Assembly: GCA_026129905.1 (NCBI GenBank)
Contig: JAHCHE010000013.1
Span: 101,475 to 165,474 of the forward strand
Length of the DNA: 64,000 nucleotides
Origin: Bryobacteraceae bacterium
GTDB taxonomy: Bacteria; Acidobacteriota; Terriglobia; Bryobacterales; Bryobacteraceae
Direction of reading: 5' to 3'
Position numbers and translations under genes: made by a program. The stretch's first letter is position 1, and every line of letters begins with the position of its first letter. A model generated the notes under the pieces. That model saw only the letters and a list, made by a program, of their open reading frames with translations. It searched no databases and had not been told where the DNA came from. Positions 222 to 43,489 of the stretch are shown one piece after another.

Positions 222-2918
222 TCACTCGGCGGTCGCCCGCACGCGAGGCTGGCTGCGAAAGACGGCGTTCAGGAAGAGGGCGTTCAGCCCGTCCATGTAA
301 GCCCGGAAGTTGGGATCCGCCGTGAACCCGATGACGACGCCGCGCCCGGAGCGCTGCACGATGACAAAGGGCTTGTAGGCCAGTTGGCGGCGGTTCTCCT
401 CCCAGAGGTAGCCACCGGCCAGAAGCTCGGACGGTCCGAGGAACGTCGCGGCGTTGACGCCTTTGTCGAGCTTGATGGGGGTGAAGATGGAGCGGCCTCG
501 GACGGTGACGTTCACCGTCCCCGCAAGACCCGCGGTTATCCAGTGATCTTCGTCGACGCGCGCCCGCGCCAGCACGCCGGGAATCTGGTCGGGCCGCTCG
601 TGTTCCGGCTCGATCGCCTTCCGGTAGTCGTCTTCTTTTTCGAGAAATTGCCCGGGCGCGGAGCCCGGTGGGGGCGGCGTTTCCGTTTTTTCCGGCTTTT
701 CTTTGGCGGCGCCGGCCCGGGGCTGATTCTCGCGAGCGATGGCGAGCAGGCCGACCTTCGGATCGGCCAGGTACGTCAGAGCGCCCTCGACGCCGATGAG
801 GGCGCCGCCGGACTCTACCCAGGCATTCAGGCGTTTCAGGCCTTCCTCGCCGAGCACGGACGCATAGTTGCCGCCGTCGGGGAGGATCAGCACGTCCAGG
901 CGGCTCAAATCCGCCGTGGCGGCCAGCAAGTGCGTGCGGATCGGCGTGACGGGATATCCGAACTGGCGTTCGAGGACGAAGCGGGTATGCCCGGCGGCGT
1001 TTCCCGCGACGGGCCGGTCCCAGGCAATAGCGACGGCTGGGCGGGACAGCGCCACCACGCGGTTGCTGCCGAAGCTGACGCCTCGATCGACCCAGCCGCT
1101 GTCAGTGGCCACGGCATCCGCGCCAGCCGCCGCGGCAAGTTTCGGCATCAGGTCGTGAATGCGGGGTTCGTTCTCGCTCACCCGCAGGATGAGCGTCCCT
1201 CGCGGAAATGTGCGTCCGTTCTGTTCGAATTCCTTATCCGTGGTCCAGACTTTCAGACCTTCGCGCAGCGCCGCGGCGAGAAACCGCCCTGCCGGCGCCG
1301 TACCCCACGGAACGAGGTAGGCGAGCTTCGCCCGCCCGATGGGCGCCGGGGCGGGCGGGGCGGCTCCTGGCGCGACGATTTCCGAGGCTGCGGCAGGAAG
1401 CTGGTCCGCGGGAATCAGCTCGACGTTGTAGAGCAGCGGGAGGGACCATGCGACGATGTCGTAGATTTCGTCGGGCAGGTTCTTCGAGCGGAGGCGTTCC
1501 TGCTCCTTGACGAACTCCTCCTCCATCTTCACGTCCGGGTCGAGCAGCGTGCGGACGAGGCGGGCGGCCGGCTGAGCCATGTCGATGATGTAGCTGCCGG
1601 CCGGCGCCGGTTTACCGCCCGCGTCGAAGGGCGCCGCCGTCCGTTTCACCTCGATCCCCTGGCCGGCGAGCAGATGCGCGAGCTTGTCGACGGCGGGGAC
1701 GTCGCCCCGGCGGGGGAGGATGTAGGCGCGCACCGGTCCCTTTCCTCCCTCGTCGATCGCGGACTGCCGGTATTTATAGAAATTGGAAAGCAACTCCCGG
1801 TGGCGAAGGGCCGCCGTCTCGCAGGTCGCGATGGACGCCAGAAAGTGCTGGCGCACGGTTTCGCGGAAGTGAAACACGCGGCTGTCGGTGCGGCGCATGA
1901 TGGCCAGGCCCCGCGAGGATGCCTGTTCGTAGGTCATCGCCACGCTGCCGTAGTAGGACGGCCAACTGGCGCCGTAGCCGGGATAGAAGGCGTCGAAGAT
2001 CTCGCGGGTGAAATAGCTGAAGCCGAACTGGTCGAACCACCGCGCGTTATTGCGCCCGAACCACTCCAGGGCGTCGCGCTGATCGCGGGCGATGTGCGGA
2101 TTGTAGGGAACGGCCTCCGGCGCGAAGTAATAGGTGGCTTCGGAGCCCATTTCGTGCAGGTCGACGAACACCAGCGGAAGCCACTCGAGCAGCGCCTTCA
2201 CACGGCCGCGGGTTTCCGGCTGGGTCAGCGCGAACCAATCGCGGTTCATGTCGAAGTGGTAATGGTTGGTGCGGCCGCCGGGCCAGGGCTCGGTGTGCTC
2301 GAGGGAATCCGGGTTGGGATCGGGCTCCGGGCCGAGGCTTTCGATGAAGTGGTGGAGAAAACGGGTGCGCCCGTCCGGGTTTTGAAGCGGATCGATGAAG
2401 ACCAGGACGTCGGCCAAGACGCTCGCCGCCAGCTTGTCGTTGCGCGCGGCCAGCAGATGGTAGGCGGTGAGCAACGCGGCATCGGGCGAAGAAATCTCGT
2501 TGCCATGCACTCCGTAGGCGAGCCAGACGGTCGCGGGCAGGGAGGCGATCAGCTTTTCGGCTTCGGCTCGGGGCGTGCGGCGCGGGTCGGCCAGTTTCTT
2601 GATGCCGGTCCGGATTTCTTCGAGCCGGCGGAGGTTCGCCTCCGAGCCGATGACGGCGTAAACCAGCCGGCGATCCTCCCACGTCCGGCCGTACTCGAAC
2701 ACCCTCATGCGGCCCGGGGCCGCGGCGGCCAGGGCGTCCAGGTACTGCAGGATGCCTTCATGGCTGGTGATGCGCTCGCCGGCGTCGTAGCCGAGCGTCC
2801 GGCGGTGCGTGGGTATCGAGGGATCGTAGGTAACCGAGGGCCAGAATTCGAATTTTGTCTGCGGCACCGCGGGAACGAGCGTGAGGAGCGAAACCAGGCC
2901 GGCGCGTGCGATTCGCAT
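222..2918 (-). CDS. Secreted M14-family zinc carboxypeptidase
   Basis: 898-aa ORF with signal-like N-terminus (MRIARAGLVSLLTLVPAVP). HxxE zinc motif in 'AYGVHGNEISSPDA', typical of peptidase M14. The overlapping 1223-aa plus-strand ORF (384..4055) is an antisense GC artefact over this region. Confidence 0.8.
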   Translation of the reverse strand: MRIARAGLVSLLTLVPAVPQTKFEFWPSVTYDPSIPTHRRTLGYDAGERITSHEGILQYLDALAAAAPGRMRVFEYGRTWEDRRLVYAVIGSEANLRRLEEIRTGIKKLADPRRTPRAEAEKLIASLPATVWLAYGVHGNEISSPDAALLTAYHLLAARNDKLAASVLADVLVFIDPLQNPDGRTRFLHHFIESLGPEPDPNPDSLEHTEPWPGGRTNHYHFDMNRDWFALTQPETRGRVKALLEWLPLVFVDLHEMGSEATYYFAPEAVPYNPHIARDQRDALEWFGRNNARWFDQFGFSYFTREIFDAFYPGYGASWPSYYGSVAMTYEQASSRGLAIMRRTDSRVFHFRETVRQHFLASIATCETAALRHRELLSNFYKYRQSAIDEGGKGPVRAYILPRRGDVPAVDKLAHLLAGQGIEVKRTAAPFDAGGKPAPAGSYIIDMAQPAARLVRTLLDPDVKMEEEFVKEQERLRSKNLPDEIYDIVAWSLPLLYNVELIPADQLPAAASEIVAPGAAPPAPAPIGRAKLAYLVPWGTAPAGRFLAAALREGLKVWTTDKEFEQNGRTFPRGTLILRVSENEPRIHDLMPKLAAAAGADAVATDSGWVDRGVSFGSNRVVALSRPAVAIAWDRPVAGNAAGHTRFVLERQFGYPVTPIRTHLLAATADLSRLDVLILPDGGNYASVLGEEGLKRLNAWVESGGALIGVEGALTYLADPKVGLLAIARENQPRAGAAKEKPEKTETPPPPGSAPGQFLEKEDDYRKAIEPEHERPDQIPGVLARARVDEDHWITAGLAGTVNVTVRGRSIFTPIKLDKGVNAATFLGPSELLAGGYLWEENRRQLAYKPFVIVQRSGRGVVIGFTADPNFRAYMDGLNALFLNAVFRSQPRVRATAE

Positions 2919-3080
2919 AACGATAAGGATACGCCCAGCGACTGCGCCCGTCAGCCGCGTCCGGCGGTTCGCCGAGTCGAGTCGAGATCCGTTACGATAG
3001 AAAACACAACGGCGGCGCGCGGGGCTCCGCTGCCTGGAAGAGCAATCGACAGCCCCGTCAAGGCGAGGTTCGGGATCGCG

Positions 3081-4055
3081 TTGGATCAGAAAACCCTTAG
3101 AGCACTATTGGAGCCGGCGCTTGCCGACTTTATTGAAGAGTGCCGAACCATCTGTTGCCTTGCCGCGAACGAGCACGGGGTTATCGCGTTCGCCAACACC
3201 GCGGCGGCGGCGCTGTTTGGCGTAGTGGAGTCCGAACTCCTGGGGCGAACGTTGTGGGAGTTTCTCCCGCATGCCGATGCCGCGGCCTTGCGATCGGGTT
3301 CGCGCGAACGACAGGGAAGCCGGCGGCTACGGCTTAACGTAGTCGGCGCGGATCACCGCCCGATCACGCTCGACTGCGTCGTCCGGACACACGGCGATAC
3401 GGTTGTGCTCGTCGGAGAGCCGTCAAGCCTCGATCCCGCGCAGGCGACGCAACTCCTGCAACTGCACCACGAGATGGAAGCGTTAGCCCGGCAGCAGGCT
3501 CGTCCGGGCGCCCATTTCCGTCCAGGACGAAGCGAGTGGCACGATCCCGCGCAATGGGATCCGCTGACCGGCGCGGCGAACCGAAGCCGCCTGGACAGCG
3601 TGCTGCATCGCGAAACGGAGTACCAGCGGGCGCACGGCACGCCGCTTACCGTTGTGCTGCTCGACGTCGATCACCTGAAAGCGGTGAACGATACCTATGG
3701 AGAAGCCGCCGGCGACGCCGTTCTGGTGGAACTCGGCCGGCTTCTGCACCACGATACGCGTTCGCACGAACTGGTAGCGCGTTACGGCGGAGAGGAGTTT
3801 GTCGTCGTGCTGCCCGGCGCCGGGTTGCGGCAAGGAGCGGGACTCGCCGAGCGCCTGCGGATCAAGGTGGCCGACATGGAGGTCGAAGCTTGCCCCGTCT
3901 CTGTCACAGCCAGTTTCGGAGTCGCTTCGATGCAGCAGGGCGAATCCCCCGAATCCTTGCTAGGAAGGGCCGACGTGGCGATGCAGACGGCAAAACGAAA
4001 GGGCCGCAATCGCGTCGAGTGCGCCCTGGACGGCGATTGCCAGCCGATTCCGTAG
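3081..4055 (+). CDS. PAS-GGDEF diguanylate cyclase (start uncertain, possibly TTG ~3081)
   Basis: C-terminal GGDEF domain with RYGGEEF active-site motif ('DPLTGAANRSRLDSVLHRETEYQ...ARYGGEEFVVVL'). A PAS-like segment (IAFANTAAAALFGVVESELLGRTLWEFLPH) precedes it. It lies at the 3' end of the long artefactual ORF 384..4055, so the true start cannot be fixed; a purine-rich AGGCGAGG sits upstream of TTG 3081. Confidence 0.75.
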   Translation: MDQKTLRALLEPALADFIEECRTICCLAANEHGVIAFANTAAAALFGVVESELLGRTLWEFLPHADAAALRSGSRERQGSRRLRLNVVGADHRPITLDCVVRTHGDTVVLVGEPSSLDPAQATQLLQLHHEMEALARQQARPGAHFRPGRSEWHDPAQWDPLTGAANRSRLDSVLHRETEYQRAHGTPLTVVLLDVDHLKAVNDTYGEAAGDAVLVELGRLLHHDTRSHELVARYGGEEFVVVLPGAGLRQGAGLAERLRIKVADMEVEACPVSVTASFGVASMQQGESPESLLGRADVAMQTAKRKGRNRVECALDGDCQPIP

Positions 4056-7243: not shown

Positions 7244-7807
7244 GTGAAAATGCGGTTGATATACTTGGAGGAAAGCACACCGCGCTATCTGGAGACGTCA
7301 ATGAGCACTGCCAAACTGCAACCGGTCGAGAGTCAGGAACATGGTCTGGAGCCACCCGAGCTTTCGGGTCCGCCCGCTTACCGCGTCGCCAACAGGATCC
7401 TGGATTGGATTACCAGCGAGAGAACGCAGTTGCTGAACATTACCGAACGGATCAACGAGGTGGTGCGCAAAAGCGGCATCCGCAACGGTCTCGTTCACTT
7501 GCAGTCGCTGCACACCACAACCGCGGTATTTCTCAATGAATGGCAGGAGGCGCTGCTCGACGACGTCAAGGCTTTCCTCGAGGAGACCGTCTCGCCGCGC
7601 AAGTATTACCGCCACAACGACCCGCAATTGTCCGACTGCGAACGGCAGAACGCCGACTCACACCTCCGAGGCATGCTGATGGGACAGAGTCTCCTGCTTC
7701 AGGTCCGCAACGCGAAAGTGCTGCTGGGGACGTGGCAGACGATCGTGCTGGCGGAGTTCGATGGGCCGCGGAGCCGGTCGCTGGCCGTTCAGGTATCGGG
7801 CGTCTGA
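7244..7807 (+). CDS. YjbQ/UPF0047 family protein (secondary thiamine-phosphate synthase-like); true start may be the internal ATG at 7301
   Basis: Core 'LQSLHTTTAVFLNEWQ...HLRGMLMGQSLLLQV...LGTWQTIVLAEFDGPRSRSL' matches YjbQ. A paralog lies at 22431..22850. Confidence 0.7.
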   Translation: MKMRLIYLEESTPRYLETSMSTAKLQPVESQEHGLEPPELSGPPAYRVANRILDWITSERTQLLNITERINEVVRKSGIRNGLVHLQSLHTTTAVFLNEWQEALLDDVKAFLEETVSPRKYYRHNDPQLSDCERQNADSHLRGMLMGQSLLLQVRNAKVLLGTWQTIVLAEFDGPRSRSLAVQVSGV

Positions 7808-7810
7808 CGG

Positions 7811-8251
7811 ATGCCGAGATACTTCACGCTGAGCCAGGCTCAGAGTCTGTTGCCGCTGCTGGAAAAGGAATTCCGGCAGGTGGTTCACATCCGGCGGGAG
7901 TTGGAAGGCGCCGCATCCGATCTGGACGCCTACTCGCAGCACATCGCCATGGCTGGCGGCGCCCTGGTGGACCAGCGGCGGCTGCTGAGTCTGCGCGGCC
8001 GGCGCGACGCGCTCGCCACGCGGCTGAAGGAAGGCATTGAAGCCATTCAAGAGCATGGCTGCCAGGTGAAGGACCTGGACATGGGCCTGCTCGACTTCCC
8101 GACGTTGTTGCGAGGGCAGGAAGTGTTGCTGTGCTGGAAGCTCGGCGAGTCCGAGATCGCCTATTGGCACGGAACCGAGGAGGGCTTCCGAGGCCGCAAG
8201 CCGATCGACGACGACTTTCTCGCCAACCACGCCGGCGACCCGCAGCACTGA
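7811..8251 (+). CDS. DUF2203-like hypothetical protein, 4-nt downstream of yjbQ (operon)
   Basis: 146-aa ORF starting 'MPRYFTLSQAQSLLPLLEKEFRQ...', resembling the DUF2203 N-terminus. It is tightly coupled to the upstream gene. Confidence 0.45.
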   Translation: MPRYFTLSQAQSLLPLLEKEFRQVVHIRRELEGAASDLDAYSQHIAMAGGALVDQRRLLSLRGRRDALATRLKEGIEAIQEHGCQVKDLDMGLLDFPTLLRGQEVLLCWKLGESEIAYWHGTEEGFRGRKPIDDDFLANHAGDPQH

Positions 8252-8264
8252 GCCCGGTTTCTCT

Positions 8265-8311
8265 CGAACCCTCACGCCTCCTCGCCGTCGAATAGCCGCC
8301 GCGGCGTGCGC
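8265..8311. repeat. Direct repeat copy 1 (degenerate duplicate of the amidohydrolase 3' end)
   Basis: 'cgaaccctcacgcctcCTCgccgtcgaataGccgccgcggcgtgCgc' matches 9132..9175 at 44/47 (3-nt indel plus 2 substitutions). It still encodes a degenerate '...TPRRLFDGEEA*' on the minus strand. Confidence 0.7.
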
Positions 8312-8327
8312 GCGCGATTGGGGAGGG

Positions 8328-8899
8328 ATGTCGAAGCGCGAAAGTTCTTCAAATCTAGTACAGAGTACTATAGAATTTAAGTGGAGCTTGAATTCCCTGC
8401 GCGGCAAGGCGACAGTTTTCAAGACAAAATGGTTTCAGCGGTTTGCCCGGAGGGAGAAGCTCTCGGACGCAGCTCTCTCGGAAGCCGTCGTGCGCGCCAG
8501 AATGGGCGGATCGATGCAGACCTCGGCGGTGGCGTCATAAAGCAGTGGATCGCGCGGGTGGGGGAGGGAAAGTCGGGTGGATACCGGACCATCATTCTCT
8601 TCCGGCGGGGGGAGCGTGCGATCTTTATGTACGGCTTCGCAAAGAGTGAGCGGGAGAACCTCCGCCCCGATGAACAAAAACAATTCAAAGAAGCCGCGAA
8701 GCACGTGTTCGCCCTGACGGAAGCGGAGCTTGCGGCGTTGGTTCGGGAAGGCGAATTCGTAGAGATGACAAGGACATGCGTAAGAGCAAGAAGTACCGAA
8801 GCGATGCGATGGCCTCCATTCACGAGACAATGGAGGCCCTACACAAGGTGGGCGCGATCGGCAAACGGACGATGCGGCGCTTCGACGAAGCTTGCCTGA
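8328..8899 (+). pseudogene. RelE/HigB-like toxin (PF06296-type, 'KTKWFQ...GKSGGYR' family), frameshifted
   Basis: The N-terminal part is in the frame of ORF 8328..8540 (TVFKTKWFQRFARREKLSDAALSEAVVRA). The rest is in the frame of ORF 8381..8899 (NGRIDADLGGGVIKQWIARVGEGKSGGYRTIILFRRGERAIFMYGFAKSERENL...ELAALVREGEFVEM). Joining them at about 8490..8510 reconstitutes the canonical family layout. This is consistent with a 1-nt deletion in an A-run (...gccagaa[a]tggg...). Confidence 0.6.
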
Positions 8900-9099
8900 C
8901 TCGGGTCCAGCCGCTCAGGCCGGGCGAGATCAGAGCGCTGCGGGAGCGGGAGCAGGTGAGCCAAGCGGTCTTTGCGAATTACCTGAACGTGACACCGAAC
9001 CTGGTGAGCAAGTGGGAGCGAGGCGAGAAGACGCCTTCCGGCCCGGCGCTAAAGCTGCTGTCGCTGGTCGAGAAGCACGGCATTGCGGCGGTTGCCTGA
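8776..9099 (+). CDS. HTH (XRE/COG2944-type) antitoxin partnering the RelE/HigB-like toxin (start 8776 or 8809)
   Basis: '...MASIHETMEALHKVGAIGKRTMRRFDEACLTRVQPLRPGEIRALREREQVSQAVFANYLNVTPNLVSKWERGEKTPSGPALKLLSLVEKHG' is the typical antitoxin paired with PF06296 toxins. The reading frame is intact. Confidence 0.75.
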   Translation: MRKSKKYRSDAMASIHETMEALHKVGAIGKRTMRRFDEACLTRVQPLRPGEIRALREREQVSQAVFANYLNVTPNLVSKWERGEKTPSGPALKLLSLVEKHGIAAVA

Positions 9100-9131
9100 C
9101 GATAATAACGCCCGCTGTTTCGATGAGATCC

Positions 9132-9175
9132 CGAACCCTCACGCCTCGCCGTCGAATACCCGCCGCGGCGTGTGC
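9132..9175. repeat. Direct repeat copy 2 (the authentic 3' end of the amidohydrolase gene)
   Basis: The minus-strand reading gives '...LWHTPRRVFDGEA*', the C-terminus of CDS 9139..9891. Confidence 0.7.
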
Positions 9176-9891
9176 CAGAGAATATCGGTCTTCGCTTCGG
9201 CGGGGATATCCATCCCGGTGATCTTGCCGAACTCCGTCTCGATGCTCTCGGGGAGGTCGGCGCCGGCCATGAGGCGGCTCGACGGGATGTGCGCGAGGAC
9301 CTCCGTGATGTGGTGCGGCATCAGCGAGGATACCTCGATATAGATATTCGGGCACACCGACGCCGCGACGATGGCTTCCGCGACATAGACGCTGCCGCCG
9401 GCGTGGCCGAGGACGATCGACAGTCCGGGGAACTTGCGCGCCGGCATGATGAACAGCGACGGCAGCGCGAAGGGCGCGCCGGTCCCCGTATGGCAGATCA
9501 AGACGAACGAATGTTCCAGCGCCGTCTCGAAGTAGAAGTCGCTGCGCGGGGAGATGGGGTTCAACGGCTGATACTGCGGCTGGAGCTTCAGCGCCCGAAA
9601 TCCGAGTTCCTCGGCGCAGCGGCGCGCCTCCGTGCGGAAAGCCGCGAGCGGCTGGAATGGATAGAGACAGGCAACGCCGGTGAAGCGGTCCGGGTGAGCC
9701 CGGACGGCGCGGCCGATCTCGTCGTGCGCCGCTCGTTCATCTTCGACGACTGGGAAGGGAATCAGCGCCGCGCGATCGACGCCGCCGCGGTCCATCGCCC
9801 GCAGCATTTCGTCCGCGCTGCATGTGCGGCCGCTGTGCCGCGCCGCGCCGAGGTGGGCGTGCGTGTCGTAGATGCGGAAGCCGTTTCTCAT
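9139..9891 (-). CDS. Amidohydrolase-2 family (TIM-barrel metal-dependent hydrolase)
   Basis: 'MRNGFRIYDTHAHLG...' carries the HxH metal-binding start of amidohydro_2 proteins. Its ATG overlaps the tag stop (ATGA at 9888..9891). Confidence 0.7.
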   Translation of the reverse strand: MRNGFRIYDTHAHLGAARHSGRTCSADEMLRAMDRGGVDRAALIPFPVVEDERAAHDEIGRAVRAHPDRFTGVACLYPFQPLAAFRTEARRCAEELGFRALKLQPQYQPLNPISPRSDFYFETALEHSFVLICHTGTGAPFALPSLFIMPARKFPGLSIVLGHAGGSVYVAEAIVAASVCPNIYIEVSSLMPHHITEVLAHIPSSRLMAGADLPESIETEFGKITGMDIPAEAKTDILWHTPRRVFDGEA

Positions 9892-10490
9892 CCGCGCCGC
9901 GTCGCCCGGCCCGCCTGGCGGTAACGGAAGCAGCTCACCAGGTGGTCGTTCACCATGCCCGCCGCCTGCATGAAGGCGTAGCAAATTGTGGATCCGACGA
10001 AGCGGAACCCGCGCTCCTGGAGATCCTTGCTCATCCGGTCCGATTCCGCCGTGCGGGCCGGAACCTCGCGCAGCTCCGCCCACGCGTTTTGAACCGGTTT
10101 TCCGTTCACAAAGCGCCAGATATATGCGTCGAACGAACCAAATTCCTTGCGGGTTTCGACAAAAGCCGCGGCATTGCGGATCGCCGCCCGGATCTTCAGG
10201 CGATTTTTGACGATGCCGGAATCGGCGAGCAGCGCCGCGACTTTCGCCTCGCCGTACGCCGCCACCGCGTCGGGGTCGAAGCTGTCGAAAGCCGCGCGGT
10301 AGTTGTCCCGCTTCCGCAAGATGGTGGACCAGCTCAGCCCCGCCTGCGCTCCTTCGAGAATGAGAAGCTCGAACAGCGCCCGGTCGTCATGGAGCGGAAC
10401 GCCCCACTCCCGATCGTGGTAGGCGATGTCGAGCTGTCCCCGGGCCCAAGGGCAGCGCGTCTTTGTACTTGCCGCCATCGCCTCCCTCAT
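9888..10490 (-). CDS. tag: DNA-3-methyladenine glycosylase I
   Basis: 'CPWARGQLDIAYHDREWGVPLHDDRALFELLILEGAQAGLSWSTILRKR...' is the Tag signature. Its ATG overlaps the stop of the upstream hydrolase gene (ATGA at 10487..10490). The long N-terminal extension in the ORF track is artefactual. Confidence 0.85.
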   Translation of the reverse strand: MREAMAASTKTRCPWARGQLDIAYHDREWGVPLHDDRALFELLILEGAQAGLSWSTILRKRDNYRAAFDSFDPDAVAAYGEAKVAALLADSGIVKNRLKIRAAIRNAAAFVETRKEFGSFDAYIWRFVNGKPVQNAWAELREVPARTAESDRMSKDLQERGFRFVGSTICYAFMQAAGMVNDHLVSCFRYRQAGRATRRG

Positions 10491-20852: not shown

Positions 20853-22456
20853 ACCCGGTTTCACTTCCGGGTCTGGTTGCCGGCGCCCGTTTTTTCGCCC
20901 GCCTTCCCGTTTATCTGCACCGGCGGCTCGACCTGCCGGAGGCCCGCGCCTTGCTGGCGCGAAGGCTGGAGCAGAGGGAGGCCCGCTTCCTCGACCGGCT
21001 GCGCACCGATGTCTACAGCCGGCCCAGCGGCGTCTACGCACGCTTACTCCGTCACGCGGGCTGCGAGTACGGCGACATTGAGCGCCTGGTGAAGACCGGC
21101 GGCGTCGAGGGGGCGCTCGAACGCCTCTTCGCCGCCGGCGTCTACCTCAGCGTCGACGAGTATAAGGGCCGGAAGCCTGTCGTTCGCGGGACTCTTCACA
21201 TCGAGGCCGGACCCGAACGGCTGCGCTCCCCCCGCGCCGCCTATCATCTTCCCGGCGCCAGCGGCGGCAGCCGCAGCGGCGGAACGCCGGTATTGATGGA
21301 CCTGCGTTTTGTCAGGGATTGCGCCGGCAACTGCGCGCTTTGCCTGGACGCCTGGGGCGGCGCGAACTGGCGGAAGGGAGATTATGAAACACCCGGCGCG
21401 GGCGCGCGTTTCCGCCTGGTGAAGTTCGCCGCCTTCGGGAGACTGCCGGAAGCCTGGTTTTCGCAGGTCCATCCCGCCGACCCGGCGCTGGCGCCCATCG
21501 CCCGATGGAACACGCGCGCCATGCGGCTGGCGAGCACGCTGGCCGGAAGGCCGCTCCCGGCGCCGGTCCACGCGCCTCTATACGACCCGGCGCCGGTGGC
21601 CGAGTGGCTCTCTTCGGTGTTGCGCGCCGGCGACACCCCTCACCTGTTCACCTTCCCGGGCTCCGCCGTGCGCGTCTGCCTGGCGGCCGAACAGAAAGGG
21701 ATCGAAATCGCGGGCGCTCGTTTCATGCTGGCCGGCGAGCCCATCACGGAGGCGCGGGTGGCCACCGTCCGCCGCAGCGGCTGCGTCGCCATCCCGAGGT
21801 ACGGCACGGTGGAGACCGGCGCCATCGCCTACGGCTGCCCCAACGGCGAGCATTCCGACGACGTCCACGTCCTGCGCGATATGCACGCCCTGATTCAGGC
21901 TGGCGACGACAACCCGGCCGGCCTGCCGCCCACCGGCATTCTGCTCACGCTCCTGCATCCGCGCTCGCCCTTCCTGATGATCAACGTCTCGATGGGCGAC
22001 CAGGCGCAGGTCGGCGAGCGGGACTGCGGGTGCCCTCTCTACAATGCCGGCTGGACGACGCGCCTCTACGAGATTCGCAGCTTCGAAAAGCTCACCGGCG
22101 GCGGCGTGACCTTCCTGGGGACGGACGTTATCCGTATCCTCGAGGAACTGCTGCCCGCGAAATTCGGCGGCGCGGCTACCGACTACCAGTTGGTGGAGGA
22201 AGAAGCCCCCGATGGCAGGCCGCTTCTGCTTCTCGTGGCGCATCCTGCGCTCGGGCCGATCGAGGAGTCGCGCCTCACCGAGACCTTTTACGCGGCGCTT
22301 GGCGAACTCTCGGATTACTCGGCGGCCATGACCCGGCGCTGGCGGGATGCCAATACGCTCCAGGTCGCCCGCCGCCCTCCCTCGATCTCGCGCGCCGGAA
22401 AGATCCTCCACCTGCACGCGTCCGGAAAGGTTAGTCCCCCACCACCGTCACCGTGA
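20849..22456 (+). CDS. PaaK-like adenylate-forming enzyme (phenylacetate-CoA ligase / F390-synthetase-related); GTG start overlapping the upstream stop (GTGA)
   Basis: 'FTFPGSAVRVCLAAEQKGIEIAGARFMLAGEPITEARVATVRRSGCVAIPRYGTVETG' matches PaaK/CapK-like ligases. The ORF track's upstream start at 20714 would overlap the preceding gene. Confidence 0.55.
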   Translation: MNPVSLPGLVAGARFFARLPVYLHRRLDLPEARALLARRLEQREARFLDRLRTDVYSRPSGVYARLLRHAGCEYGDIERLVKTGGVEGALERLFAAGVYLSVDEYKGRKPVVRGTLHIEAGPERLRSPRAAYHLPGASGGSRSGGTPVLMDLRFVRDCAGNCALCLDAWGGANWRKGDYETPGAGARFRLVKFAAFGRLPEAWFSQVHPADPALAPIARWNTRAMRLASTLAGRPLPAPVHAPLYDPAPVAEWLSSVLRAGDTPHLFTFPGSAVRVCLAAEQKGIEIAGARFMLAGEPITEARVATVRRSGCVAIPRYGTVETGAIAYGCPNGEHSDDVHVLRDMHALIQAGDDNPAGLPPTGILLTLLHPRSPFLMINVSMGDQAQVGERDCGCPLYNAGWTTRLYEIRSFEKLTGGGVTFLGTDVIRILEELLPAKFGGAATDYQLVEEEAPDGRPLLLLVAHPALGPIEESRLTETFYAALGELSDYSAAMTRRWRDANTLQVARRPPSISRAGKILHLHASGKVSPPPPSP

Positions 22457-22850
22457 TCTCGCGATCCCTCGGCCGGTCGTCGAAGTCGCACAACACGATC
22501 TGCTGCCACATTCCCGAACCCAACTGCCCGTCGATGATCGGGAAGCTCCTTGCCGTCCCTACCAGCGCGCTCCGCAAGTGCGAATACCCGTTATTGTCGC
22601 CCCACCGCGCGTTGTGGGCGTAATCTGAGGTCGGCGGCGCGATCTTGTCGAGGGCGCGTTGAAGATCGGACACGCAGCCCGGTTCGTACTCGATCGTGGT
22701 GATGCCGAGCGTCGAGCCGCGCCCGGAGACGTTCACTATCCCCGTGCGAATCCCGCTGTCCCGCACCATCTGCTCCACCTGCCGGTGGATGTCCACCACG
22801 TGACCGTGTCCCTGCGTGGATATCGGGAAGGACTTCTGAAAACTCGCCAT
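22431..22850 (-). CDS. yjbQ: YjbQ/UPF0047 family protein
   Basis: 139 aa, canonical YjbQ length. 'GIVNVSGRGSTLGITTIEYEPG...SHLRSALVGTARSFPIIDGQLGSGMWQQIVLCDFDDRPRDREI' matches the family signature. Confidence 0.8.
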   Translation of the reverse strand: MASFQKSFPISTQGHGHVVDIHRQVEQMVRDSGIRTGIVNVSGRGSTLGITTIEYEPGCVSDLQRALDKIAPPTSDYAHNARWGDNNGYSHLRSALVGTARSFPIIDGQLGSGMWQQIVLCDFDDRPRDREITVTVVGD

Positions 22851-26290: not shown

Positions 26291-26384
<94 letters not shown>

Positions 26385-26703: not shown

Positions 26704-27054
26704 TCAACTCGCCCTCCGCAGCACGTCCTCCACTGCCTCGGGATGCTTGGCGATTACTGCCAGCAGCACGCGCGTAGGCGCGTCCGGCCGCGACCTGCCC
26801 TGCTCCCAGTTGCGCAGTGTGGCTGGCGGAAGGCCGAACTTTGTCGCGAACTCCGACTGGCTGAGTCCCATCTTGGTCCGGACCTTGCGCACATCAATCT
26901 CAGGGATGTGAACCAGCGTTACGCGGGCGTTGGTGCTCTCTCCGCGCGTCCACGCGATCGCGTCGTTCAGGCCCTGAATGATGCTCTCGCCCACCGTCTG
27001 GCGCTTTCGAGCGACCGCCTTCTTCGCCGGTTTCGCCGTCTTCCTCGCAGCCAT
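26704..27054 (-). CDS. HTH (XRE/COG2944-type) antitoxin, partner of second RelE/HigB-like toxin
   Basis: '...VTLVHIPEIDVRKVRTKMGLSQSEFATKFGLPPATLRNWEQGRSRPDAPTRVLLAVIAKHPEAV' has the same architecture as the 8776..9099 antitoxin. Confidence 0.75.
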   Translation of the reverse strand: MAARKTAKPAKKAVARKRQTVGESIIQGLNDAIAWTRGESTNARVTLVHIPEIDVRKVRTKMGLSQSEFATKFGLPPATLRNWEQGRSRPDAPTRVLLAVIAKHPEAVEDVLRRAS

Positions 27055-27064
27055 ATTGCACCTC

Positions 27065-27414
27065 CTATGCCTTCCTCGGATAGCCGGCGATCAGGGCCGG
27101 CACCAACCGTTTCATGGCGTTCTGCTCGGCCTTGCTCAGGTTCTCCTTCCGGCCCTTCGCATATGCGGAAAGCAGAAACACCGGCAGACGCTCGCTGTGG
27201 TAGTAGTAGATCACTCGCGCGCCGCCGCGCTTGCCCATGCCCGGCAAGGCCCACCGGATCTTCTAACGCCGCCGGTCTCCGGAATGATCTCTCCGGCTTC
27301 TGGATTCGCCGCGATGAACGCCACCAACCCCGCGCGCTCTGATCCGGAAAACAACGGCTTCGCCTTGCGCAGGGACTCCGCGGTCTCGACCACCGTCATC
27401 GGAGCATTCGCCAT
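27065..27414 (-). pseudogene. Second RelE/HigB-like toxin (paralog of 8328..8899), frameshifted
   Basis: The N-terminal part (ORF 27211..27414) reads '...GEIIPETGGVRR'. The C-terminal part (ORF 27065..27247) is in another frame: 'KIRWALPGMGKRGGARVIYYYHSERLPVFLLSAYAKGRKENL'. Restoring one 'a' in 'gttagaa[a]gatccgg' joins them into the family layout (TGGVRKIRW.PGxGKRGGAR). Confidence 0.6.
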
Positions 27415-40179: not shown

Positions 40180-41430
40180 TTACTGGAATTGAGGCTTCAC
40201 GTAGAAGCGCAGCATCAACTGGTACACACTCACCGTACCTGTGAAGTCGTCGATCGGCTTCGTAGGATCGCGGCTGATCCGGACGAACATCGTCCGTCGT
40301 TCGGCGCAGCCCGTCATGTTGAGGCTCGCAATACTGCTCGTCCGCTGCCTGTCGGCGGTCGGCAGTCCCGGCGTCAAACTCTGAGCCGAGTTGTACGCTG
40401 GATTCACGATATCTCCGTTATCCAGGACGCACGCGGTGTTGATATCGAACGCGACTGCGCTGCCTGTGCCCGCGCCTCGCGTCCACCGGAAAAGGAGTTC
40501 GACGCCGGTACCGTCCCACCCTTGGGGCACGGCAGTCTGCCACGTGGCCGACATCGACGCTATCCCGTCGGGGAACGTCAAGAAGCCGATTGTGTGCGGA
40601 TGCGTGCCGGCGGCGGCCTTGCTCGCTGCCTGCGTCGCAGGCAGGGATACTCCCATCAGGTCTTGCGTGCCGGCCGTTCGATCCACCGATACCGGAATCG
40701 CTTCCTTCTCAACCAACGTCCGGATCGTCGTCCATTTCAACCCCGTTGCTTCTTGTTCGTTGCTGACGAGGAATTGCTCGTTTGAGCCGACGGGCAGCGG
40801 GAAGTCGGTCGTCCCATCGTGCGTGTGAATGTCGCCCCGGTTGGACAGCGGCGTGCCTCCCGCTCCACAATCCCCCCATGTCCCATCCCCCTTGAGACAC
40901 TTGTACCCATCGCCCGGCTCCGGCCGCGGCACGGCGCCTTTCGACCCGCCGCCGCCGGAATCCCCAACCATCGTCGGCAACCAGTCGCGGTCCAGCGTCC
41001 CGACGCTCGTTGCCTTCGGTATCCCGTACGCCGTCGCTGTTGACGTCGCCACTTCATCTGCGCCTCCATGTTGATGCCTCGAGCGGTGGCTATCGCTGGC
41101 AAATCCCGTGTGACCCGAGGTCGCATAATCGAGGTTGCTGAGTTGCGAGTGATTCAGCGTCCCACCGCCGCTGTCCACCGGCTCCCACTCCGTTCCCGAT
41201 GCCTTGCACCGCAGCAGTCTTTGCCCTGCCGGCGCGTCCGTGTCGTTGAAAAACTCCTTCAGCGGCGTGCACGTCGCCGGAGGAGTAGGCCCGCTCTTGA
41301 TCGGCGACGTGGCGCCGGCATCGGAGTAATCCTGTATCGAACCTGTCTCGGCGACCGTGCCGTGGTCCTTCTTCTGACCCGAAAGTGAAATCGCTATCAG
41401 CACAGTCGTTATGTAAAGTCTCAATTTCAT
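40180..41430 (-). CDS. Secreted repeat protein with His-x-His motifs (paralog of 41483..43489)
   Basis: Signal peptide MKLRLYITTVLIAISLSG. Shared modules are 'NLDYATSGHTGFASDSHRSRHQHGGADEVAT...IPKA...LDRDWLP...GAVPRP..GDGYKCLKGDGTWGDCG'. Additional HTH/HPH triads are present. Confidence 0.7.
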   Translation of the reverse strand: MKLRLYITTVLIAISLSGQKKDHGTVAETGSIQDYSDAGATSPIKSGPTPPATCTPLKEFFNDTDAPAGQRLLRCKASGTEWEPVDSGGGTLNHSQLSNLDYATSGHTGFASDSHRSRHQHGGADEVATSTATAYGIPKATSVGTLDRDWLPTMVGDSGGGGSKGAVPRPEPGDGYKCLKGDGTWGDCGAGGTPLSNRGDIHTHDGTTDFPLPVGSNEQFLVSNEQEATGLKWTTIRTLVEKEAIPVSVDRTAGTQDLMGVSLPATQAASKAAAGTHPHTIGFLTFPDGIASMSATWQTAVPQGWDGTGVELLFRWTRGAGTGSAVAFDINTACVLDNGDIVNPAYNSAQSLTPGLPTADRQRTSSIASLNMTGCAERRTMFVRISRDPTKPIDDFTGTVSVYQLMLRFYVKPQFQ

Positions 41431-41482
41431 GACACCCTCTTTCTTACCCGCAACATGCAGCCGAATCGGACCGAGCCGGCGG

Positions 41483-43489
41483 CTAGAACATCAGGACCAC
41501 TTCGTACGCCCCGCCTTGCGAAACCGCCGAGTACACCACTCCCACGAGCCCGCTCGAAGGCTTAGTCGCGCCGGCGTCCCGGCAGTTCCCCGGCGTCGAA
41601 TTGCTGACCGCGACATAGCGCCCTGGCGTTGGCGGACTGTCGAACACGCACAGCGCCCGGCCGCGTATCGCGATGCGCGGCGATCCGGATGTCCCGCATG
41701 CCCCGGCGCATATCCCGAGCAGGTCGCCGCTGGAAGCGGGCGCTCGCACCGCTTTTACCGGGTCGCCGTTTGTCCACGACACCAGTTTGTTCAGCGTCGT
41801 CCCCGTCGCCGTGTCGTTTGCCACCGAGAAATCGAGATACTTGGTCCCCAGTCCCAGTTGATTGTTGCCGCTGAAGTTGTTGTCGTCGCCCTGGCATCCT
41901 ACGTACGAGCAGTCGACTTCCCATCGCATGTTCGGACTCGTCTTCGTGATCACGATCCCCGCTCCTGCCTGCGCGACGTACTCGTTCGTCAGCGTCGAAT
42001 TCGCGCTCGCGACCACGTACTCCGCATCGATCGGCCCGCCGCCACCGCCGCCGCTGCCTCCGTCGTTTCCGTCGCCCTGCAAAATCCACGTCCCCCCTTC
42101 ACAGGCGTACAGCCGCCGCCCCGAGAGAGCATTCGTGTTCAGGAACACTTCGCCCGTCACGCACGAGCCCGGCAGTCCCGCTCCACTCGGTATGCCGAGT
42201 TTGCCGCCGCCCAGATCGATCTTCCCGGTGTGGGCAATCGTGCTCCCGCTGACAGACGTCCCCGTTACTCCGCCCAGCACCCCGGAACTGTTGTACTGAA
42301 GTTGCCCGCTCGCGCCGCCCGGCGCCCCGCCGGTGCCGGTTCCGCAGGCGCCCCACGTCGCATCGCCCTTCAGACACTTGGATGCGTCGCCCGCCGCCGG
42401 CACCGGTACCGCGCCCGTTTGCCCTCCGCTGCCCTGGTCACCCGTCATCGCAGGCAGTTGAGCGCGGCTGATCTTCACAGCGGCGTCCAGCCCGGCGTAC
42501 CCCGAAGCCTGGTTTTTGCGCGATAGCGCCTCGTAGACGCCGCTGAGGTCCGGCATCCAACCGGCGGCGAGTTTACCGCTGGCATCCGCTTTGGGTATCG
42601 CGTTAGCCCCGGGCGTTCCTGTCGCCACCTCGTCTCCGCCTCCGTGTCGATGCCTCGATCCGTGATTCTCCGCCGCGAAACCCACATGGCCGGAATTGGC
42701 GTAATCCAGATTGGTCAGTTGCGAATGGTCCATCGTTCCGCCGCCCGCGCCTCCGCTCCCCTGAAGCCGCGAGATCATGATCCGCCCCGCAGTGGCCTTC
42801 GACCAGGTAACCGTAACGTCCCCGGTCGATTTCCCTATCTCAACCGAAGCCGGCGAGATCCGGTTCCACTTCGCCCCGCCATCCGATTGCGCAAATACCT
42901 CTACGTTCGCTCCCAATCCATGCGTGGTCCCCGCGATCGTCCAGGGGTTCGACGCCCCCAGGAATTGTTGGATGTAGGGCGCCGGAGAAGCTCCGCCGCA
43001 GTCGCCCCACGCGCCGTTCCCTTTGAGACACCTTTCGGCGTCGCCCGCTCCGGGGGCCGGCACCGCTCCGCTCTGTCCTCCCGCGCCGTCGTCGCCGGTC
43101 ATCTCCGGAAGCCAGTTCCGGTCCAGTTTGCCGTCGCTCTTTGCCTTCGGAATCACGTTGGCGCCCGCCGTGGCGCTCGCCACCTCGTCGACGCCGCCGT
43201 GCTTATGCGCCGCTGCGTGCAACTCCGCGCTGTTAACCCGTGTCCACGAGTTCACCGCCGTGCAAAGGTAGAGGTTTTGTCCTGCGCTGGCGTCGCTCTT
43301 GAAGAATGCTTGCCCGATCGAGCAAGTCCCCGGAAGCGTCGTTCCGACGGTAAACGGTTTCGTCGCCGCCGCGCTGCCAAAATCAACGTTCCGGCCCTGG
43401 GCCTTGAGGTCCACCCGTGTTTCGCTGAAACTGGGCGCCGCCATGGCCAGAACCAGCAGCGCGCCGCGCATAGGTCCGTGAACAATCAT
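41483..43489 (-). CDS. Secreted repeat protein with duplicated HxHGG-DEVA / CLKGxGxWGxCG modules
   Basis: Signal peptide. Two copies of '...H.HGG.DEVA..T.GAN.IPKA...GKL...W.P...GD.G.GGQ.GAVP.P.AGDA..CLKG...WG.CG'. Two copies of 'G(T/S)C..G..F....A.(A/S)G..LY.C'. Confidence 0.7.
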   Translation of the reverse strand: MIVHGPMRGALLVLAMAAPSFSETRVDLKAQGRNVDFGSAAATKPFTVGTTLPGTCSIGQAFFKSDASAGQNLYLCTAVNSWTRVNSAELHAAAHKHGGVDEVASATAGANVIPKAKSDGKLDRNWLPEMTGDDGAGGQSGAVPAPGAGDAERCLKGNGAWGDCGGASPAPYIQQFLGASNPWTIAGTTHGLGANVEVFAQSDGGAKWNRISPASVEIGKSTGDVTVTWSKATAGRIMISRLQGSGGAGGGTMDHSQLTNLDYANSGHVGFAAENHGSRHRHGGGDEVATGTPGANAIPKADASGKLAAGWMPDLSGVYEALSRKNQASGYAGLDAAVKISRAQLPAMTGDQGSGGQTGAVPVPAAGDASKCLKGDATWGACGTGTGGAPGGASGQLQYNSSGVLGGVTGTSVSGSTIAHTGKIDLGGGKLGIPSGAGLPGSCVTGEVFLNTNALSGRRLYACEGGTWILQGDGNDGGSGGGGGGPIDAEYVVASANSTLTNEYVAQAGAGIVITKTSPNMRWEVDCSYVGCQGDDNNFSGNNQLGLGTKYLDFSVANDTATGTTLNKLVSWTNGDPVKAVRAPASSGDLLGICAGACGTSGSPRIAIRGRALCVFDSPPTPGRYVAVSNSTPGNCRDAGATKPSSGLVGVVYSAVSQGGAYEVVLMF

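Follow-up and report, generated by a model that had tools for sequence, protein, structure and literature searches.

The comparisons reported here support the conclusion that a small toxin-antitoxin (TA) cassette was inserted at the tight convergent junction between a DUF2203 gene and an amidohydrolase gene in a Bryobacteraceae bacterium, apparently duplicating about 50 bp of its target as it did so. We refer to the 64,000-nt stretch analyzed as the window, and all window coordinates are positions within it. The cassette encodes a RelE-type toxin and a helix-turn-helix (HTH) antitoxin. It lies between two copies of a sequence that combines the 3' end of the amidohydrolase gene with the former spacer between the two stop codons, and related sequences carry the same junction without it.

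Copy 1 of the direct repeat occupies 8262–8311 (50 nt) and copy 2 occupies 9129–9175 (47 nt). The two are identical at 44 of 47 aligned bases. They differ by three mismatches (copy 1/copy 2: t/c at 8264, g/c at 8295 and c/t at 8309) and by a single 3-nt CTC indel, and all of these differences preserve the reading frame. The original prediction, made from the sequence of the window alone, had located the repeat here with the same identity, and both points hold, with the boundary placed 3 nt further left, at 8262. A 'gtttc' motif found at 8257–8261 and again at 9116–9120 was considered as a slightly longer duplication and rejected because it was not significant.

The repeat is present exactly twice in the 64-kb window. 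None of 100 dinucleotide-preserving shuffles gave two or more matches to it, and comparison of the two flanks of the TA pair by blastn-short returned an E-value of 4e-11. The exact 25-mer pattern GCCGTCGAATASCCGCCGCGGCGTG had no occurrences in the 132 related loci fetched. On this evidence the repeat is neither a product of chance nor, within these sequences, a dispersed element of the repetitive extragenic palindromic (REP) kind.

Copy 2 is continuous with the body of the amidohydrolase gene and serves as its working 3' end. It had been described as the last 14 codons of that gene; the identification stands, while the length does not, as copy 2 consists of the last 11 codons (ending HTPRRVFDGEA), the stop codon (tca, 9139–9141) and 10 nt past the stop. 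Copy 1 is a relic of the same 3' end. On the minus strand it reads ...RTPRRLFDGEEA followed by a pseudo-stop (tca, 8272–8274) and then 10 nt of the former inter-stop spacer, and the predicted reading ...TPRRLFDGEEA before a stop is indeed seen in the sequence. The duplicated segment therefore spans from just after the DUF2203 stop codon to 37 nt within the amidohydrolase coding region. The amidohydrolase keeps a complete C-terminus by way of copy 2, and the relic tail lies beyond the insert.

Copy 1 had also been called a decayed duplicate. It is a relic duplicate, but it is not clearly more decayed than copy 2: compared by eye with the single copy in the closest empty relative (L130, described below), each copy differs at 5 of 28 comparable positions. 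Copy 1 retains the L130-like Arg codon before Thr and the three codons after Asp-Gly that give the L130 tail length, and the Arg before Thr is also found in several other members of the amidohydrolase family. Copy 2 has kept the Val, has His instead of Arg, and is one codon shorter. These differences appear too few to polarize the two copies, and neither seems clearly more decayed than the other.

Evidence for insertion comes from relatives that lack the cassette. L130 is a 1,636-nt contig from metagenome sample SRR21707666 whose DUF2203 protein is 88% identical to that of the window. Its gene order is YjbQ, DUF2203, a spacer of 6 nt, and a convergent PF04909 gene ending in ...ILWRTGRRVFDGVES before its stop, with no TA cassette. 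Window positions 7300–8311, running through copy 1, align to L130 positions 1–998, and window positions 9144–9813, starting within copy 2, align to L130 positions 967–1636, with 84.9% nucleotide identity in both cases. L130 positions 967–998 thus align to both window copies, which is the signature of a target duplication. Identity of the flanks to L130 is uniform on both sides away from the junction (82–92% per 100 nt), so that no foreign amidohydrolase allele came with the cassette.

A second empty site is found in L132, in which the two stop codons abut with 0 nt between them. These two loci show what had been predicted for relatives without the cassette, namely a single copy of the repeat and adjacent stop codons, and no relative was found with both copies but without the cassette. 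Two other relatives carry something else at this position. In L131, a gene for a 159-aa zinc-ribbon protein (1227–1706) lies between the DUF2203 and amidohydrolase genes without a flanking repeat, and contig JGI 3300056388 has a gene for a 119-aa protein at the same junction. Insertions have thus landed at the DUF2203/amidohydrolase junction more than once, and in the lineage of the window the TA insertion is the derived state.

These relatives were reached by a search from the DUF2203 side. A search from the amidohydrolase side returned relatives no more than 78% identical, including 45 genome loci, at most 77% identical, with no DUF2203 gene, Tag gene or TA cassette nearby. The first impression from that search, that synteny at the junction is not conserved, was overturned by the closer relatives.

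The insert itself comprises 817 nt (8312–9128) and contains a promoter/operator region, a PF06296 RelE-type toxin, an HTH antitoxin and short foreign ends. The left end (8312–8347, 36 nt) has no counterpart in the target or at other TA loci; homology to L130 ends at 8311, and homology to TA loci begins at about 8347 in the alignment. The right end (9100–9128, 29 nt), which includes the second 'gtttc' motif, matches nothing. What is common to the homologous TA loci runs from the promoter-like site through the antitoxin stop codon at 9099. The promoter-like site (8348–8376, plus strand) consists of TTCAAA (8348–8353), a 17-nt spacer and TAGAAT (8371–8376). A consensus scan found this one site against 0.1 expected, and its sequence is conserved across the homologous TA loci. 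A palindrome within it, TAGTAC-AGA-GTACTA (8356–8370), is presumed to be the operator bound by the antitoxin.

In its domains, gene order and promoter/operator, the cassette resembles known toxin-first operons of PF06296 RelE toxins with HTH (Xre/MqsA-like) antitoxins. It differs from them in that the toxin has lost its start, frame and stop, and only the antitoxin is intact. The original prediction of a RelE-like toxin paired with an HTH antitoxin is thus borne out by Pfam at the level of domains, but not as regards an intact toxin gene. The toxin pseudogene (8400–8779, plus strand), delimited by alignment to 126-aa homologues, gives a Pfam match split across two frames: profile positions 3–33 in the frame of 8328–8537 and positions 33–119 in the frame of 8504–8785. 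The two RelE hits have E-values of 1.1e-07 and 4e-33. Its closest homologues (P0121–P0125) are 75–77% identical. Relative to these proteins the toxin carries three lesions: the start ATG has become cgc (8400–8402), 1 nt has been deleted after 8498, and a 6-nt insertion (8779–8784) has destroyed the TGA stop codon.

In the homologues, this TGA overlaps the ATG of the antitoxin, giving a 4-nt overlap between toxin and antitoxin. The antitoxin of the window (8776–9099, plus strand) is intact, with a C-terminal HTH_3 domain (E = 1.5e-08) and a weak match to MqsA_antitoxin. It has 107 aa, compared to 105 aa in the homologues, and the extra Arg-Lys comes from the same 6-nt insertion. The toxin DNA of the window has diverged more from its homologues than the antitoxin DNA. 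With these lesions the toxin is dead, and the cassette has become an orphan antitoxin beside a toxin relic.

Homologous cassettes at other loci carry similar scars. We scanned metagenome contigs with the toxin alignment and obtained 80 loci, 69 of them with usable flanks. Flanks of 3 kb were compared by self-blastn, and a direct repeat was counted as strong at E ≤ 1e-9. Strong direct repeats, 52–615 nt in length and located at unrelated genes, bracket the TA pair at nine of these 69 loci. In a control of 310 kb from unrelated loci, 0.07% of positions were bracketed at E ≤ 1e-9 and 0.8% at E ≤ 1e-3. No one target or repeat length is common to these cases; the targets, checked with Pfam, are mostly gene 3' ends.

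In L066 (at least 57 nt, 100% identity), a fragment of about 200 nt from the C-terminal part of DNA polymerase I starts about 4–15 nt past the antitoxin stop codon, and in L072 (52 nt, 96%, plus a 22-nt block), a decayed 3' fragment of PurF follows the antitoxin stop immediately. The repeat of L093 (172 nt, 86%) covers the 3' end of a FecR/DUF6600 gene, and that of L050 (615 nt, 89%) covers the 3' part of an AIRS-family gene. L095 has three copies (1886–1975, 2725–2858 and 3816–3948) at a convergent Polysacc_synt_2/heptosyltransferase junction; within this region (1886–3948), a HicBA cassette (2018–2601, minus strand) lies between the first and second copies and a RelE/HTH cassette (2998–3682, plus strand) lies between the second and third. 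In L062 (59 nt, 98%) and L117 (185 nt), the repeats are about 4 kb apart and enclose more genes. L128 (95 nt, 79%) is a weak case, as its repeat is a paralogous C-terminal domain that is present three times.

In L048 (1–4600), a RelE/HTH pair and a complete MmeI-type restriction-modification (R-M) gene lie together in one insert, and the direct repeats on either side of it (99 nt, 100%; 54 nt, 89%) correspond to the N-terminal part of an AIRS-family gene. In L062 (2200–6372), the repeat is the 5' end, including the first ten or so codons (MRLTSIRAQN), of two different genes, for an AAA_21/OLD-like ATPase and a TIR-domain protein; with the TA pair placed between the two, the setting looks like a defence island. 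L129 (2517–3539) carries a homologous TA pair with inverted repeats of 33–47 nt (91–97%), a transposon-like arrangement or one resembling a miniature inverted-repeat transposable element (MITE). L053 was rejected as a target duplication because its repeat is a small palindromic element. The mosaic repeats of L066 and L048, in which a 100% block lies beside an 85–89% block, were considered as evidence of a donor allele and also rejected, since both exact blocks (57 and 99 nt) coincide with contig ends, the points at which k-mer assembly breaks off.

The original prediction had proposed insertion of a TA module into the end of a host gene with duplication of the target, and the two empty sites support this proposal. 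As to how it happened, we consider it probable, though well short of certain, that the TA fragment was captured in one step and without a recombinase, the target being duplicated in the process, as in the mode known as 'insertion with long target duplication'. No dedicated recombinase would take part. A linear or templated TA fragment would instead be captured during illegitimate repair of a break, for example by the joining of staggered or sister-chromatid breaks, or by a replication template switch that leaves the target and returns behind the point of departure. Such events would naturally yield duplications of variable length and would need no element ends. Survivorship could then expose what are rare events, in that the broken gene is made whole again by the duplicated segment and an addiction module is not easily lost. 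After insertion, the toxin would have been inactivated by its three lesions while the antitoxin stayed intact.

Several observations fit this explanation. The variable lengths of the repeats argue against a transposase, the unrelated targets argue against a site-specific attachment (att) system, and the uniform divergence of the flanks argues against a foreign amidohydrolase allele brought in by one-sided homologous recombination. Furthermore, in L009 (4668–5073) there is a head-to-tail tandem duplication with a unit of about 207 nt, about 80% identity and nothing between the units, covering the 3' ends of an amidohydrolase homologue and its convergent neighbour. This cargo-free duplication shows that junction duplications arise without any element.

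Searches for mobility functions were negative within their scope. The TA pair is all that the insert encodes, with no integrase or transposase, and Pfam identified neither among 20 open reading frames (ORFs) selected by a rough codon-composition gene call in the first 33 kb of the window (0–33 kb). The absence of an evident transposase, as claimed earlier, holds for the insert and for these ORFs. No inverted repeats were found at the ends of the insert. An RNA gene as target was rejected, as the region has no Rfam match and the sole tRNA gene of the window lies at 26.3 kb. Among the repeat-bracketed related cassettes no shared att core was found; their repeats come from unrelated genes and differ in length.

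These results bear on site-specific recombination, in which the two copies would be the left and right attachment sites (attL and attR) of an element mobilized in trans or reduced to its TA genes, in the manner of a remnant cis-mobilizable element (CIME). Gene 3' ends are the usual targets of integrative elements, which bring a replacement tail with them, imperfect flanking repeats of 40–100 bp are typical of such elements, the differences between the two copies are in frame, and L095 is an array of cassettes separated by one repeat. However, besides the lack of an integrase in the insert and in the selected ORFs, the targets of related cassettes are themselves unrelated (polA, purF, a glycosyltransferase gene, AIRS-family genes), their repeats measure 52–615 nt and have no common core, and the cassettes share nothing outside the span from promoter to stop. 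At the same junction, L131 and the JGI contig each have just one small gene, with neither repeats nor an integrase. We regard site-specific recombination as unlikely.

A two-step origin, in which the convergent junction was first duplicated in tandem and the TA cassette later entered exactly between the units, we likewise judge to be unlikely. A prior duplication would be neutral, as each gene would keep one intact end, and L009 provides an example at an amidohydrolase tail. L033 (4554–4707) has 65-nt tandem repeats (97%) right after its amidohydrolase match ends at residue 211. On the other hand, the copies in the window are equal in extent, so the second event would need to have hit the joint between the units exactly, and the same coincidence would be required at each independent TA locus. 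No relative has this duplication in an empty state, and L130 and L132 are both single-copy. Apart from this question, the L033 repeats may represent another rearrangement at the amidohydrolase tail.

Still less probable is one-sided homologous recombination with a donor that carried the TA cassette beside its own amidohydrolase gene, with an illegitimate joint at 8311/8312 and the tail of the recipient left as copy 1. The appearance of the copies by eye, with copy 1 outgroup-like in its Arg and its tail length and copy 2 distinguished by His and the missing codon, would suit this scenario, as would the fact that all differences between them are in frame. However, the match to L130 is equally close on both sides and uniform along the amidohydrolase gene, with no foreign block at the junction, and the copies are equally distant from L130. 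No TA cassette lies beside this gene in the 35 amidohydrolase loci or in the 84 TA loci, and producing a duplication instead of a replacement demands an extra unequal exchange.

The GC-rich genome and the metagenome-assembled source might suggest that the two copies are alike by chance, belong to a dispersed REP-type repeat or reflect an error of assembly. These readings are effectively refuted by the shuffles, the E-value and the copy numbers given above, by the matching empty site on an independent contig (L130), and by the differences between the copies, which mean that they are not a collapsed repeat.

Some points weigh against one-step, recombinase-free capture. The mechanism is one that we infer, and the data equally allow break repair, template switching or a trans-acting enzyme. 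The window covers 64 kb of a multi-megabase genome, and an integrase elsewhere is possible. In principle, the empty sites could be revertants produced by recombination between the two copies. As for recurrence, the survey loci are metagenome contigs, and two exact repeats coincide with contig ends, the points at which assemblers break off; the control loci are unmatched for 'accessory' genomic context; and the three-copy array of L095 looks like tandem site-specific integration as well.

Insertion with long target duplication has been described for R-M units (Nobusato 2000, Gene 259:99; Furuta 2010, NAR 38:2428, PMC2853133). The criteria used there are repeats longer than 30 bp, an insert smaller than 20 kb, no mobility genes, and repeats that align to an empty site; published R-M repeats include some of 45–47 bp and others of hundreds of bp, and two 46-bp repeats in H. 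influenzae overlap gene 3' ends (PMC2853133). The same authors suggest that the process is driven by double-strand breaks that the restriction enzyme makes (PMC2853133). A 2013 review by the same school ties the mode to R-M systems alone, while discussing the mobility of TA and R-M systems together (PMC3874152), and elsewhere the mode is recognized for R-M systems 'and other DNAs' (PMC3457768). We found no description of it for TA cassettes in the literature searched, most subscription journals being outside the coverage.

The locus in the window resembles the R-M cases in most respects. Repeats longer than 30 bp (here 50 and 47 nt with 44 matches) flank a small addiction-type unit; both copies align to one empty-site sequence (L130, 967–998); at 817 nt the insert falls below 20 kb, and no mobility gene was found in it, the TA pair being its sole content, or among the 20 selected ORFs of 0–33 kb; the repeat is low-copy (two in the window, none in the 132 loci); length varies between events and there are no terminal inverted repeats. 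The mechanism is equally unsolved for the published cases. The difference lies in the cargo, which here is a type II TA pair and not an R-M system, and a driver based on restriction cleavage cannot apply to a toxin of the mRNA-interferase type. L048, with its TA pair and MmeI R-M gene in one repeat-bracketed insert, combines the two kinds of cargo.

Other known systems fit less well. Integrative elements and CIMEs likewise have direct repeats flanking the insert, with the host tail reconstituted and a relic tail left behind, but no integrase was found here, the cassettes have no common core, and targets and lengths vary. Transposons, insertion sequences (ISs) and MITEs also insert between duplicated copies of a target. 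However, their duplications have a fixed size of 2–14 bp, compared to about 50 bp here (47–615 nt overall), and neither terminal inverted repeats nor a transposase is present. REP-like dispersed repeats would be expected in many copies per genome, whereas two are found in the window. As regards an integron cassette, which would end in an attC hairpin site and depend on an IntI integrase with attI, the insert is flanked by direct repeats derived from the target, and no integrase was found in it or among the selected ORFs; no search with attC models was made.

The TA cargo is new for a known, mechanistically unsolved insertion process and does not constitute a new category. It is poorly understood how chromosomal TA modules move when no plasmid, phage, transposon or integron carries them, and the empty site together with the scars at 9 of 69 loci ties TA cassettes to the route described for R-M units. 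TA cargo weakens restriction cleavage as the driver of this mode and points either to a property that addiction modules have in common or to general break repair plus selection. In addition, the locus is a dated example of the aftermath: the duplication keeps the host gene whole, the toxin falls into decay and the antitoxin survives. What is claimed is modest, since this kind of event has already been described and its mechanism is unsolved; its recurrence makes the mechanism testable.

A broader generalization is possible but doubtful at present: type II TA cassettes, like R-M units, may be recombinase-free mobile units that enter by way of long target duplications of variable length, preferentially at gene ends and convergent junctions. 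If this is true, such insertion could be a major route by which chromosomal TA modules spread: at least 13% of the loci of this TA family are still scarred, and arrays like that of L095 can accumulate. The shared driver might then be, for example, selection through post-segregational killing or stress-induced break repair, unlike the restriction cleavage proposed for R-M systems.

The host genes at the junction were identified with Pfam, in agreement with the predicted placement of the TA pair between convergent DUF2203 and amidohydrolase genes. The DUF2203 gene (PF09969, E = 2.8e-37; 7811–8251, plus strand) ends with a TGA at 8249–8251 and is the left neighbour of the target; its orthologues hold the same position in L130, L131 and L132. 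The amidohydrolase gene (PF04909, Amidohydro_2, E = 3e-23; 9139–9891, minus strand), whose tail is the insertion target, overlaps the downstream Tag glycosylase gene (about 9888–10478) by 4 nt. Its product is 100% identical to P0001, a protein from a Bryobacteraceae metagenome-assembled genome at NCBI. Exact-protein look-ups for the amidohydrolase, DUF2203 and antitoxin sequences of the window gave no match on record. A second UPF0047/YjbQ paralogue is encoded at 22431–22850, about 15 kb from the YjbQ gene beside DUF2203.

The window holds a second TA-like module, located directly after its only tRNA gene (tRNA-Ser, 26291–26384) and extending to 27414. It consists of an intact HTH_3/MqsA-like antitoxin gene (26704–27054, minus strand) and, upstream of it, a PF06296-like toxin in two frames (27065–27247 and 27211–27414) that appears to be frameshifted and whose Pfam match is weak (25.4 bits; cut-off, 27). 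No flanking direct repeat was seen at this module. Finally, several diverged direct repeats (70–75% identity, 83–158 nt) occur at 40874–43228, in and between minus-strand ORFs at 40180–43489, and these resemble internal or paralogous protein repeats.

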